This document shows positions 46,601 to 55,600 of a DNA stretch of 64,000 bases, in pieces. The stretch is from Escherichia coli. Lineage in GTDB: Bacteria > Pseudomonadota > Gammaproteobacteria > Enterobacterales > Enterobacteriaceae. The first letter of the stretch is position 1. The number at the start of each line of letters is the position of its first letter. The DNA lies in NCBI RefSeq assembly GCF_024700885.2, contig NZ_CP117016.1; one strand, written 5' to 3'. Position numbers: made by a program.

Positions 46601-49600
46601 TATAAGCACTATAAGGAACTCAAAGGTAAAATTGAAGAAAATCTTCAAAATCGCCAGACGGAATATCAAAATGAAATTAATCAACTATCTGCGCCAGGTG
46701 TTAATTTTGATGATATTTAAAATTATTTTTCCAGTTTTTTGATTTTTCAACGCCTGAATATCGGAAATAGTCAGTGACGAACATCAGTATTTTTACATAA
46801 TTACGTCCAGGTTATTGTCGGTTTATCTTCTTTTACTTGGGGTAATTGAGGGATAACAACAAAAAAGGTGAGTTTTGCGATTCACCTTTTTTATTTGTTT
46901 CTTATTCAGAATCGATATCTTTTAAATCATCCTGAATTGCTTGCGCGTTCGGATTTTCCTGCGGTTTGAGTTCGCCGCCATTAGCGATGAAATCATGACG
47001 CTGGAAGTACGCTTCGCGCACCATAATGTAAGGATCGGACGACTGACGCAGCAGACCATCGGAATCCAACAACTGCGCACGAGTTTCTATCCCTTCAAGC
47101 GTCCATTTACCCACAGACATCGGCCAGGTCAGCCAGGAAAGAACCGGGTAAAGACCATCCGCCATATCACCACCGTCATCACGCAGCGTGAAGCTACCGT
47201 AGAATGGTAACTGAACGTACGGCCCATAACCCACGCCATAATGACCAAGCGTACTACCGAAGCGGTGAGGTTCAGTCCGTTGCAGTTTCGGGTTCGCCAT
47301 CCCTGCAACATCAATAAAGCCGCCCATCCCCAAAATGGTGTTCAGGAAAAAGCGGGTAAAGTGGACCATCCCCTGATAAGGGTCGCCCTGCAAGAAGTAG
47401 TTAACCATCACCGCAGGTTCTTCCAGGTTGCCCGTGAAGTTGCTCAAACCGTTACGCGCCGGTTGCGGAACATAATCACGCCAGGCGACAGCCACCGGTC
47501 GAACAACATACGGGTCTAATACATTGAAGTTGAAGTTGTACATGGTGCGGTTGAACCCTTCTAACGGGTCAGAACGCCCCTGCTGATCTGTACCGGAACT
47601 CGCACACCCCACCAGAAGCGTAGTTCCCAGAGCAAGCGCCGACAGGCGAAGCTTCATAAATGTCTCCCTGTTTTTTTATGGCTTATGCAGTTTGCCATCC
47701 ATGACGGAACGATACCGTATCCGCCTGTTTAGGTGTGGGCGATTGTAACAGCACGTCAACTGATGTCCAGACGCCCTGATTTGCTGATTTGATCATAGCC
47801 TGGTAATCGCCGCCCTGTAGGCTACTTGATTCTATAGAAACAGAAAAAGGCAAACGCAGCCTTTTCTACATTTTCAGAGTAACTCCCGCCAGTTGCGAGC
47901 AAAAAAGCCGCTACGCTTTAGCTATACGTGCTAATTCAAGAGAAGAGACCATGGACAACGACAAAATTGATCAACACAGCGACGAAATTGAAGTTGAGAG
48001 CGAAGAAAAAGAGCGCGGCAAAAAAATAGAAATAGATGAAGACCGACTCCCCTCCCGGGCGATGGCAATTCATGAGCATATCCGCCAGGATGGTGAAAAA
48101 GAGCTGGAACGCGACGCAATGGCGCTATTGTGGTCAGCCATTGCGGCGGGTCTGTCGATGGGCGCTTCGCTACTGGCAAAAGGGATATTTCATGTCGAAC
48201 TGGAAGGCGTGCCGGGCAGCTTCTTGCTGGAGAATCTCGGTTATACCTTTGGTTTTATTATCGTCATTATGGCCCGCCAGCAATTATTTACCGAAAACAC
48301 CGTGACTGCGGTACTACCCGTCATGCAAAAACCGACAATGAGCAACGTCGGCTTACTTATGCGATTATGGGGCGTCGTGCTGCTGGGTAATATTCTCGGG
48401 ACAGGTATTGCTGCATGGGCATTTGAATATATGCCTATCTTCAATGAAGAAACTCGCGATGCATTTGTCAAAATCGGCATGGATGTGATGAAGAACACCC
48501 CCAGCGAGATGTTTGCCAACGCGATCATTTCCGGCTGGCTGATCGCCACTATGGTATGGATGTTTCCTGCAGCGGGTGCGGCAAAGATTGTGGTGATTAT
48601 ATTGATGACCTGGCTTATTGCCCTGGGTGACACCACTCACATCGTTGTCGGTTCTGTTGAAATCCTCTATCTGGTGTTTAACGGTACGCTGCACTGGAGC
48701 GATTTCATCTGGCCCTTCGCACTACCTACTTTAGCGGGGAACATCTGCGGCGGCACCTTTATCTTCGCGTTAATGAGTCATGCACAGATCCGTAACGACA
48801 TGAGCAACAAGCGCAAAGCCGAAGCACGCCAAAAAGCAGAACGTGCGGAAAACATTAAGAAAAATGATAAAAACCCGGCATAAATGGCGAGGGTTTAAGC
48901 AATCGAGCGGCAGTGTACTTACCCCGCAGTCCATTAGCGGGTATACTCATGCCGCATTGTCCTCTTAGTTAAATGGATATAACGAGCCCCTCCTAAGGGC
49001 TAATTGCAGGTTCGATTCCTGCAGGGGACACCAGATACCCTTCTAACAATATCTACCTTCGCCCCGTAAAAGATGGGTTTGGCAGCACACTTGCCCTATA
49101 TCTACTCATTTTTACTGCAACAGGTTGAAATCTCAGCACTGTCAGAAAGCGCTGATGACTAAACAGCCCTGGGCCGGGCGATGTAACCATCACACAGAAT
49201 CCTGATAGCGAAATATGGCGTGACTCGATACTTCACTCTGCAATGCATTCCTTGATGAATTCGCAGGCCCGTGATACACGGGACAGGTCGCTGAATGACG
49301 ACAATGTCCTGGAAATCAGCGAACCGCGTATCCGGAGTACATTTGAGCGACTGTACCAGAACATGAATGAGGCGTTTGGATTAGGTGATTATTAGTTGGG
49401 CTAAGCATTTTAGTATTATTATTTTCCGGTTGAGGGATATGGAGATATCGACAACAACCGGAAAAAGTTTACGTCTATATTGCTGAAGGTACAGGCGTTT
49501 CCATCACTATTTGCTCGCGTTTTTTACTCAGGAAGAAAATGCCAAATAGCAACATCAGGCAGACAATACCCGAAATTGCGAAGAAAACTGTCTGGTAGCC

Positions 49601-52600: not shown

Positions 52601-55600
52601 TTATCTGATGTTTTCCCCGCAGGGAATGAATGCCGAGGGATACAGTTACCGAAATCGCTTTCAAAGTGGCGTAATACCCGGAATGTGGTCGCCAGGACGA
52701 CTTTTTGCACAATCCGGGCATTTTACTGAACTTGATAACGGGCATGACTTTTATGCACCACAAAGCTTTTTAGCGAAGGATGGTCGGCGTATTGTTATCG
52801 GCTGGATGGATATGTGGGAATCGCCAATGCCCTCAAAACGTGAAGGCTGGGCAGGCTGCATGACGCTGGCGCGCGAGCTATCAGAGAGCAATGGCAAACT
52901 TCTACAACGCCCGGTACACGAAGCTGAGTCGTTACGCCAGCAGCATCAATCTATCTCTCCCCGCACAATCAGCAATAAATATGTTTTGCAGGAAAACGCG
53001 CAAGCAGTTGAGATTCAGTTGCAGTGGGCGCTGAAGAACGGTGATGCCGAACATTACGGATTACAGCTCGGCACTGGAATGCGGCTGTATATTGATAACC
53101 AATCTGAGCGACTTGTTTTGTGGCGGTATTACCCACACGAGAATTTAGATGGCTACCGTAGTATTCCCCTCCCGCAGGGTGACATGCTCGCCCTAAGGAT
53201 ATTTATCGATACATCATCCGTGGAAGTATTTATTAACGACGGGGAGGCGGTGATGAGTAGCCGAATATATCCGCAGCCAGAAGAACGGGAACTGTCGCTC
53301 TATGCCTCCCACGGAGTGGCTGTGCTGCAACATGGAGCACTCTGGCAACTGGGTTAACATAATATCAGGTGGAACAACGGATCAACAGCGGGCAAGGGAT
53401 CCGCGTCACTCTTCCTCCTTCACGACCTTCAATAATATGCAATGCAGCTTCCCGCCCGATAATGTCATGTGGAAGCTGAATTGTGGTCAGCGGCGGTAAA
53501 AACAGATGCCCGACGCCAACCAGATTATCAAAGCCCATTACGGCGACATCCTGCGGGATACGTACCCCCTTCGCCAGGAGAACCTGATAAGCGACAAAGG
53601 CTGCGCGATCGTTACCACATATCAGAACATCAAAATCTGGTTTGCCAGATTTGAAGTGGTCATTGAGTAAACTTGCGAGATCGGTGTAGTGATCATCACC
53701 TGTTGCCATGTGAAATTGTTTCACCTCAGCCAGATCTCGTCCAGCATCACGCCAGGCCTGCTCAAATCCCTGCCGACGATACCCTGTTGCCAACGCACTT
53801 TCCGGTAGCCAGAAGCATAACGGTTGACGATAGCCCGCCGCGAGCAAATGCTGTGTTGATTCATATTGTGCAGTGTAATCATCAGGGATATAACTGGGTA
53901 ACGCTGGGTCATCCGCCACACAGTTCGCCAATACAATATTTTCACCATACAGAGACTCAGGCAGCGTGATATGTCGCAGCCCCATTGTAGTATAGATAAT
54001 GCCATCCGGACGGTGGGCAAGCAGCTGACGTGCCGCGCGGGCAGCGTCATCTTCAGAAAAAATATTGATTAAAAAACTATTCCAGCCGAACTCGCTGGCG
54101 GTTTGCTCAATGGCAAGCAGAATATCAACAGAGAAAGGAGTGGTAGCAGTGTCCTGCGCCAGCACGGCGAGAGTCGACGGCTTACGTCCTTGAGCGCGCA
54201 TCTTACGGGCGGAAAGATCAGGAACATAATTCAGGGTCTGGATTGCCTGCAATACGCGGTCACGCGTTGCAGGACGCACAGATTCTGCATTATGCATCAC
54301 CCGGGAGACTGTCATCATCGACACTCCCGCCAGGCGTGCGACATCCTTTAATGAAGCCATACCCAAGCCGTTTGCCGTAAAACGGGCACTGTAGCAGAAA
54401 CAGACGTCACTGGCGAGATCCAACGATATTCTCAACGCCCTATCACCCGACACGGCAATACAATAAAAAATAACAATAATTCCCGGACAATTGTGCCCAA
54501 TTCCGCCTCTGTTCTCGCCAACGAGTAACCATATAGGCAAGTAGGTAAAACATGCCAACTGGCATCGCCAACCTGGAGAAGAAAATATAAATATGGATCA
54601 TTGTGCTGCCGCTGTATCCCGACATCAGCCCGGAAATTATTGCGATTGCTATCGGTTCAGGTGCGATTGGCTGCACGATCGTTACGGACTCGCTTTTCTG
54701 GCTGGTGAAGCAATATTGCGGCGCTACGCTCAATGAAACATTTAAATACTATACGACAGCGACATTTATCGCTTCAGTCGTCGCTCTGGCGGGCACATTC
54801 CTGCTGTCATTTATCATCTAAGCGCAAAGAGACGTACTATGGAAAACGCTAAAATGAACTCGCTCATCGCCCAGTATCCGTTGGTAAAGGATCTGGTTGC
54901 TCTTAAAGAAACCACCTGGTTTAATCCTGGCACGACCTCATTGGCTGAAGGTTTACCTTATGTTGGCCTGACCGAACAGGATGTTCAGGACGCCCATGCG
55001 CGCTTATCCCGTTTTGCACCCTATCTGGCAAAAGCATTTCCTGAAACTGCTGCCACTGGGGGAATTATTGAATCAGAACTGGTTGCCATTCCGGCTATGC
55101 AAAAACGGCTGGAAAAGGAATATCAACAACCGATCAGCAGGCAACTGTTACTGAAAAAAGATAGCCATTTGCCCATTTCCGGCTCCATAAAAGCACGCGG
55201 CGGGATTTATGAAGTCCTGGCACATGCAGAAAAACTGGCTCTGGAAGCGGGGTTGCTGACGCCTGAAGATGACTACAGCAAACTGCTGTCTCCGGAGTTT
55301 AAACAGTTCTTTAGCCAATACAGCATTGCTGTGGGCTCAACCGGAAATCTGGGGTTATCAATCGGCATTATGAGCGCCCGCATTGGCTTTAAGGTGACAG
55401 TACATATGTCTGCTGATGCCCGAGCATGGAAAAAAGCGAAACTGCGCAGCCATGGCGTTACGGTCGTGGAATATGAGCAAGATTATGGTGTTGCAGTCGA
55501 GGAAGGACGTAAAGCAGCGCAGTCTGACCCGAACTGTTTCTTTATTGATGACGAGAATTCCCGCACGTTGTTCCTTGGGTATTCCGTCGCAGGCCAGCGT

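Follow-up and report, generated by a model that had tools for sequence, protein, structure and literature searches.

What fills the chromosomal slot between the tRNA gene argW and the D-serine locus in this E. coli strain, and what did the strain give up for it? In K-12, the order is argW, prophage CPS-53 (intS to torI), then dsdC-dsdX-dsdA-emrY-emrK; an earlier note on this DNA had given it as a prophage followed by dsdC-dsdX-dsdA. In the window, the whole 64-kb stretch of DNA analyzed here, the order from 5' to 3' is argW, cscB (–), cscK (–), cscA (+), cscR (–), a remnant of dsdX, an intact dsdA, and emrYK. The locus is the known E. coli csc sucrose cluster (cscB, cscK, cscA and cscR), intact and ordinary, in an arrangement that is already published. 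We are almost certain that it is the chromosomal csc regulon, a non-PTS sucrose pathway, and that both its position and its form are the standard ones. Its core features are:

48959-49033, + strand: argW, tRNA-Arg (anticodon CCT), intact (ARAGORN; Rfam tRNA, 63.4 bits)
49034-54603: csc module, 5570 bp, from the end of argW to inside dsdX
49475-50722, – strand: cscB, 415 aa, sucrose:H+ symporter of the LacY-type oligosaccharide MFS family (ORF list, profile, motifs)
50794-51708, – strand: cscK, 304 aa, PfkB-family fructokinase, intact (ORF list, profile, motifs)
51924-53357, + strand: cscA, 477 aa, cytoplasmic GH32 sucrose hydrolase (invertase), intact (ORF list, profile, motifs)
53365-54360, – strand: cscR, 331 aa, LacI-family sucrose repressor, intact
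54361-54603: region upstream of cscR at the right end of the module, its most variable part, with a 12-bp indel between lineages

Both borders were mapped by blastn against L002, a csc-negative and prophage-free genome. Homology to L002 stops at 49033, and the module starts immediately after the CCA end of argW (left junction 49033/49034); the right junction lies at 54603/54604. The earlier note, which had placed the cluster between argW and a truncated dsdX, gave the left border exactly (49034) and was about right for the other, which it put near 54590, 14 bp off. Its end coordinate, 54838, directly precedes the ATG of dsdA. Compared with the csc-negative genome, the module stands in for 2368 bp, namely dsdC with the spacer between it and dsdX, and the 5' 84% of dsdX (373 of 445 codons), so that the claimed replacement of dsdC and 5' dsdX is borne out. 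The same gene layout between argW and truncated dsdX (cscB and cscK leftward, cscA rightward, cscR leftward), with identical junctions, is found in E. coli W, O157 and NRZ101541. A chance resemblance can be set aside: the 7.3-kb stretch matches E. coli elppa4 at 100% identity and thousands of other genomes at 98–99%. An Rfam scan of the whole 64-kb window returned the argW tRNA as its sole match and no other non-coding RNA.

The four genes encode what the earlier note had read in them: a sucrose permease, a fructokinase, an invertase and a LacI-type repressor. CscB scored 594 bits against TIGR00882 (oligosaccharide MFS, cut-off 220) over profile positions 1–396 of 396, and its residue 353 is the wild-type Gln. 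CscK scored 506 bits against the fructokinase equivalog NF006957 (cut-off 450), and has the GG and DxTGAGD motifs, the latter as DSTGAGD at residue 245. CscA, whose ORF opens at 51915 and whose annotated start is at 51924, scored 477 bits against TIGR01322 (GH32 scrB family, cut-off 356); it carries the catalytic motifs WMNDPNG at residue 36, RDP at 160 and ECPD at 215, and its nearest solved structure is PDB 7vco (E = 1.7e-173). The cscR gene sits within a longer ORF (53365-54558) with its real start, MASLKD, at 54360, and its product is identical to WP_001315771.1, named 'sucrose operon repressor CscR' in RefSeq.

All four genes are full length, and their products are 0–7 residues away from those of E. 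coli W, O157:H7 and NRZ101541 (3–4 for CscB, with 4 versus W). Comparison with these proteins revealed no frameshift or stop in cscB, cscK, cscA or cscR, lesions that the earlier note had said would count against it in the first three, and no IS element is annotated inside the module. Substitutions absent from all three reference strains are F14L, V198I and L240F in CscB, T44I and R275Q in CscK, and S373G, R419G and T421M in CscA. At 98.0–98.6% nucleotide identity, the csc genes show just 2–7 amino-acid changes per protein; most of the differences are thus synonymous, which indicates purifying selection.

The regulatory sequences lie between the divergent units:

51709-51923: divergent cscKB/cscA control region (sequence inspection)
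51829-51844: TGTGATATTCATCGCA, candidate CRP-like site, read from the sequence

In this cscK-cscA spacer, the 12-bp palindrome GTTAACGTTAAC occurs twice in perfect form, at 51814-51825 and, 64 bp further on, at 51878-51889; the 64-kb window has no other exact copy. The two sites match the CscR operators of Jahreis 2002 as relayed in PMC11251922, and on this match we designate them putative CscR operators. A sigma-70 consensus scan of 48900-56300 found 0 sites versus about 10 expected in shuffles, which fits weak, CRP-dependent promoters but lends them no positive support. As the csc system is established to work, sucrose would enter the cell together with a proton via CscB, the GH32 invertase CscA would split it into glucose and fructose, and the fructose would be phosphorylated by CscK. 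CscR would bind the two 12-bp palindromic operators flanking the cscA promoter and keep both divergent transcription units off until sucrose appears, and cAMP-CRP would add catabolite control.

Downstream of the module lies what is left of the D-serine locus:

54604-54821, + strand: dsdX remnant, the last 72 of 445 codons plus stop, without a start codon or promoter of its own (PGAP pseudogene)
54839-56167, + strand: dsdA, 442 aa, D-serine ammonia-lyase, intact (TIGR02035, 807 bits)

The remnant corresponds to DsdX residues 374–445 at 98.6% identity by tblastn, and to positions 374–445 of 445 of the NF007395 profile. No DsdC homologue was found by tblastn in the 64-kb window, and a dsdA-containing query matches a single place in elppa4, so a second dsdCXA copy is probably absent from that genome. 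An intact dsdC elsewhere, the other finding that the earlier note had named as contrary to its reading, is thus absent from the window. Of a functional dsdCXA locus, the window retains an intact dsdA but neither dsdC nor a full-length dsdX. With a module that extends from the end of argW into dsdX, the strain would be without the activator DsdC and the D-serine permease DsdX.

Separated from DsdC and from the dsdX promoter, dsdA is expected to be silent. It is silent in the same arrangement in EHEC, where a CCGGATAA direct repeat mediates a 5.6-kb deletion that activates it (PMC7486766); a sequence search of 48000-56500 of the window found no such repeat. We also considered whether dsdA has been rewired under CscR/sucrose control by read-through from the cscA promoter, antisense to cscR and via the dsdX stub into dsdA, and regard this as improbable. 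The read-through itself is possible because cscA and cscR are convergent with only a 7-bp gap between them, and the first terminator-like site on the + strand lies past them, at 54787. In EHEC, deletions that move cscAp nearer to dsdA switch dsdA on (O'Boyle 2020), and in the accessible part of that paper we found no test of sucrose induction at the undeleted locus. If true, the rewiring would mean that about half of all E. coli could detoxify D-serine in a sucrose-inducible manner.

How does the locus compare with known systems? Bockmann in 1992 and Jahreis in 2002 reportedly described the csc regulon of E. coli EC3132, and Moritz and Welch in 2006 are said to have described the csc/truncated dsd arrangement of EHEC O157:H7 EDL933. 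Both the csc replacement of dsdCX and the D-serine/sucrose trade-off are already in the literature (Connolly 2015; O'Boyle 2020; PMC4366372, PMC7486766, PMC3032704, PMC11251922). The window shares with the EC3132/E. coli W csc locus (Archer 2011, PMC3032704) the four genes, their order and orientation, the argW/dsdX junctions and the two 12-bp operators. The csc proteins of E. coli W are 2–7 residues off those of the window; CscR has D234/S238 in the window versus A234/P238 in W, and the cscR-dsdX' spacer differs by the 12-bp indel. In addition, a lambdoid prophage with torI at its end separates argW from the csc flank in E. coli W, whereas the window has no prophage at argW. In EHEC O157:H7 EDL933 (z3622-z3626), dsdC and 5' dsdX have likewise been replaced, leaving the same 72 codons of dsdX and a dsdA that is intact but orphaned, and the DUF4942-fragment ORF of the window recurs upstream of cscB; O157 and window loci are 98.4–99.4% identical in nucleotide sequence. 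In O157, but not in the window, a mobile element separates argW from the csc flank and is accompanied by an imperfect repeat of the argW 3' end.

The dsdCXA locus of K-12/UPEC occupies the same slot, argW-emrY, and its dsdA and last 218 bp of dsdX are orthologous to those of the window (about 98–99% identity), but it has dsdC and 373 dsdX codons that the window lacks. The scr (PTS) regulon resembles csc in serving sucrose catabolism with a GH32 hydrolase, a fructokinase and a LacI-type repressor. It differs in relying on a PTS enzyme II and a porin and in having sucrose-6-phosphate as the substrate of its hydrolase; nothing like the scr-type enzyme II or porin is present in the window. Carriage of scr gives rapid growth on sucrose (PMC11251922).

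Across 5426 complete E. coli genomes, 2646 carry the csc arrangement and 2698 carry dsdC plus 5' dsdX, and these counts confirm the near-exclusivity of csc and dsdC-dsdX. A few strains carry both loci (PMC4366372, PMC11251922). The trade of D-serine for sucrose proposed in the earlier note is hence a strong population tendency, not an absolute rule.

From the gene content, we would predict slow, inducible growth on sucrose, and no growth on D-serine together with sensitivity to it. E. coli W has been shown to use sucrose (PMC3032704). Isolates that are csc+ scr– grow on sucrose slowly or very slowly, and some not at all (PMC11251922). In the same study, 5 of 29 such isolates with apparently intact loci showed zero growth; hence, an intact sequence is no guarantee of function. 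The earlier description of csc carriers as sucrose-positive lineages was apt for the arrangement, which is characteristic, but overstated the phenotype. Might the cluster then be functionally decayed or cryptic in this lineage, a silent remnant as in Shigella, where csc is often disrupted, or as in csc+ scr– isolates that cannot use sucrose and have no obvious lesion (PMC11251922)? The allele is indeed rare (42 records at at least 99% identity) and has lineage-specific substitutions. However, four full-length ORFs with intact catalytic motifs, perfect operators, no IS element in the module, and mostly synonymous differences indicating purifying selection make a cryptic cluster unlikely.

The history of the module was also considered. 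Identity of csc between lineages (98.0–99.4%) is close to that of the flanking core genes (97.4–99.2%). A self-mobile island was rejected, for the module has neither a second argW 3' end nor flanking repeats: the 23-nt 3' end of argW occurs once in the window with up to 3 mismatches allowed, no direct repeats flanking csc were found, and neither the ORF list nor the annotation has an integrase between argW and dsdA. A tRNA-linked integrative island, with an integrase by the tRNA and a tRNA repeat at the far border, is thus not what the window holds. The lack of integrase and flanking repeats, and a csc divergence (1–2%) matching that of neighbouring core genes, suggest that the replacement happened once, long ago, and was afterwards inherited or transferred by homologous recombination via the flanks, and speak against a recent mobile-element insertion. 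It is very improbable that this particular strain acquired the module recently by horizontal transfer on a phage or plasmid. Ten plasmid places matched our query, four coliphage genomes carry csc (PMC11251922), and argW is a known phage integration hotspot; yet its phage attachment site (attB) is unoccupied here and phage genes are absent nearby, W, O157 and NRZ101541 share their junctions with the window, csc divergence tracks the flanking core genes, and csc is reported to be near-universal in whole phylogroups (PMC11251922).

A different origin is raised by a fragment in the spacer between argW and cscB:

49159-49386, + strand: internal fossil of a DUF4942 gene, 228 bp, residues 76-151 of a 280-aa protein, 53% identity

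The fossil was found by tblastn with the full-length L004 protein and by DNA similarity, and is annotated in L001, L003 and L007. PGAP places a 50-aa ORF here, at 49243-49395, and an NCBIfam scan of the fragment gave zero matches. In their island context, full-length DUF4942 genes stand at the end of CP4-type integrative islands linked to tRNA genes. The fossil belongs to a conserved 441-bp argW-cscB spacer that is present at a coverage of at least 80% in 2623 genomes, compared with 2646 with the csc arrangement, that is, in essentially all csc+ genomes. The GC content of cscB (about 43–44%) is below that of its surroundings. The module could accordingly be the surviving cargo end of a CP4-type island at argW from which deletions removed the integrase and most of the genes, with the loss of dsdC and 5' dsdX a by-product of island decay and not of a single recombination event. 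We hold this to be possible but doubtful: an integrase, a second att repeat derived from argW and further island genes are all missing, the fragment spans only 228 bp at 53% amino-acid identity, and its orientation and distance from argW alone do not fix the history. This alternative bears on origin only; the identity and function of the locus are unchanged by it.

As to what the locus means, it classifies the strain and brings no new biology. The additions to the textbook account are minor, namely the exact junction coordinates, the DUF4942 fossil in nearly all csc+ genomes, and the counts from 5426 genomes. The presence of csc correlates with phylogroup (it is reported in B1, D and E) and with life in the intestine rather than in the urinary tract (PMC4366372, PMC11251922). 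In E. coli, replacement of dsdCX by csc is well established as a useful marker, and from it slow sucrose use, no D-serine use and D-serine sensitivity would be predicted.

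Comparison of the window with the csc-negative strain CUVET21-1780 (L002), which has the layout argW-dsdC-dsdX-dsdA and no prophage at argW, located both edges of the csc module. Homology to L002 stops at 49033 and picks up again at 54604. The left junction therefore immediately follows the terminal CCA of argW, at exactly the start (49034) proposed in the earlier note, while the right junction lies within dsdX codon 374, 14 bp away from the approximate position near 54590 suggested previously. The inserted segment of 5570 bp (49034–54603) stands in for 2368 bp of L002-type sequence, made up of the whole of dsdC, the spacer between dsdC and dsdX, and 373 codons of dsdX out of 445; the dsdX remnant aligns to positions 374–445 of the 445-position DsdX profile. 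No microhomology was seen at either junction between the window and L002. The features of the locus are:

48959–49033, plus strand: argW, tRNA-Arg(CCT), the sole tRNA in the window (ARAGORN, Rfam)
49475–50722, minus strand: cscB, 415 aa, complete
50794–51708, minus strand: cscK, 304 aa, complete
51924–53357, plus strand: cscA, 477 aa, complete
53365–54360, minus strand: cscR, 331 aa, complete
from 54604: dsdX stub of 218 bp, before dsdA
54839–56167: dsdA, intact

The mechanical ORF for cscA opens at 51915, nine bases ahead of 51924, and that for cscR extends to a TTG at 54558, the true start (MASLKD) being at 54360. Past dsdA, the next genes are emrY and emrK. On the upstream side, fadL, a yfdF-like gene, mlaA and yfdC match the K-12 order. 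The yfdF-like ORF (351 aa), in the place that yfdF occupies in K-12, has a GC content of 32–35% against ~50% around it, and after it the annotation gives a hypothetical pseudogene that is truncated at its N terminus. The two sit between fadL and mlaA (45452–46720). Only 7 of the window's 64,000 positions differ in the chromosome of elppa4, which was isolated from blood in Taiwan and whose annotation also places an IS1397 (IS3-family) transposase gene with a programmed frameshift (30239–31587) between smrB and a seven-gene yfcO-yfcV-type chaperone-usher fimbrial operon (31660–38107).

None of the four csc genes carries a frameshift or internal stop. Compared with E. coli W, O157:H7 strain 3384 and isolate NRZ101541, there are 3–4 amino-acid differences in CscB, 2–4 in CscK, 5–7 in CscA and 0–2 in CscR. 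Curated NCBIfam models matched end to end with scores over their cut-offs for CscB (TIGR00882, 594 bits, cut-off 220), CscK (NF006957 fructokinase, 506 bits, cut-off 450), CscA (TIGR01322, GH32, 477 bits, cut-off 356) and DsdA (TIGR02035, 807 bits, cut-off 368). All three GH32 catalytic motifs are present in CscA, to which 7vco is the nearest solved structure; the PfkB DxTGAGD motif is found in CscK, and residue 353 of CscB is the wild-type Gln. Nucleotide identity to other lineages is 98.0–98.6% for cscB and cscK, 98.3–98.9% for cscA and 99.2–99.4% for cscR; few of the nucleotide differences are non-synonymous, as is expected of purifying selection.

Four papers (PMC4366372, PMC7486766, PMC3032704, PMC11251922) say explicitly that cscRAKB has taken the place of dsdC and part of dsdX at the argW hotspot; the sources they cite are Alaeddinoglu and Charles 1979, Jahreis 2002, and Moritz and Welch 2006. 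The earlier note's description and interpretation of the locus were accurate: the replacement is real, already known, and present in roughly half of the E. coli genomes sequenced. Among 5426 complete E. coli genomes, 2646 have at least 80% of 48900–56200 in one place, and another 2698 reach that coverage for the replaced segment of dsdC and 5′ dsdX. Since these counts total 5344, the two states are near mutually exclusive and roughly equal in frequency. Two copies of dsdC-dsdX, an arrangement reported for K1 strains, occur in around 200 genomes (2971 places in 2772 genomes). Only one place in elppa4 matches a dsdA-containing query, so a second dsdCXA copy is inferred to be absent there.

The K-12 layout is the one given in the earlier note: argW, prophage CPS-53 (intS to torI) and then dsdC-dsdX-dsdA-emrY-emrK. 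In E. coli W (L006) a prophage ending in torI, and in O157:H7 (L007) an element with a recombinase gene, lie between argW and the same flank that begins at 49034 in the window; in the window, the argW attachment site (49011–49033) is empty. In both W and O157:H7, the last 15–22 nt of argW are repeated at that flank and kept as attR (L006 7486–7500; L007 about 3001–3023). The csc module itself lacks an integrase, flanking repeats and any further copy of the argW 3′ end. It has diverged from other lineages as much as the core genes on either side, mlaA, yfdC, dsdA and emrY (97.4–98.7% identical). Rather than a recent transfer, this points to an old event, after which the module was inherited vertically or exchanged by homologous recombination through its flanks. 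A detail not covered by the earlier note is that the 441-bp argW-cscB spacer holds an internal piece, 228 bp long, of a DUF4942 gene (49159–49386; residues 76–151 of 280, 53% identity). This fragment, probably equivalent to z3622 of EDL933, occurs in 2623 genomes, which is practically all csc-positive E. coli. In CP4-type islands linked to tRNAs, full-length DUF4942 genes occupy a terminal position, and the fragment may be a relic of the island or vehicle that first carried csc to argW, although we consider this less likely than not.

In the 215-bp cscK-cscA spacer, the 12-bp palindrome GTTAACGTTAAC occurs twice without mismatch (51814–51825 and 51878–51889), and nowhere else in exact form within the 64 kb. 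These putative CscR operators fit the proposal of Jahreis 2002, as relayed in PMC11251922, that two 12-bp inverted repeats flanking the cscA promoter serve this role. Between them lies a putative CRP-like site, TGTGATATTCATCGCA (51829–51844), read off the sequence. A simple scan found no consensus sigma-70 promoters in 48900–56300, as expected of activator-dependent promoters. In the established scheme for the system (Bockmann 1992 and Jahreis 2002, as cited in PMC3032704 and PMC11251922), CscB imports sucrose together with a proton, CscA cleaves it to glucose and fructose, and CscK adds phosphate to the fructose; CscR keeps cscA and cscKB repressed until sucrose is available, and expression needs cAMP-CRP. 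The cscR promoter presumably sits in the cscR-dsdX′ spacer (54361–54603). No other part of the module is as divergent as this spacer, which shows 93.0–93.4% identity and a 12-bp indel against W and NRZ101541, and 96.7% identity against O157.

The label 'sucrose-positive' is too strong as a phenotype: among 29 csc-positive, scr-negative isolates in a recent survey, none was rapidly positive on sucrose, and growth was slow or very slow in 23 and absent in 5 (PMC11251922). When DsdC and the dsdX promoter are missing, dsdA is silent, as demonstrated in EHEC, whose strains are unable to use D-serine and are also inhibited by this amino acid (PMC4366372, PMC7486766). We predict slow, inducible sucrose use together with D-serine sensitivity for the window strain. 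The sole speculative reading remaining is that the derepressed cscA promoter reads through into dsdA. cscA and cscR converge, their stop codons being 7 bp apart, and no plus-strand terminator-like site lies before 54787 within 53357–54838, so that read-through is structurally possible; deletions in the corresponding interval switch on dsdA in EHEC (PMC7486766). We consider such read-through improbable; if it does occur, D-serine deaminase would become sucrose-inducible.
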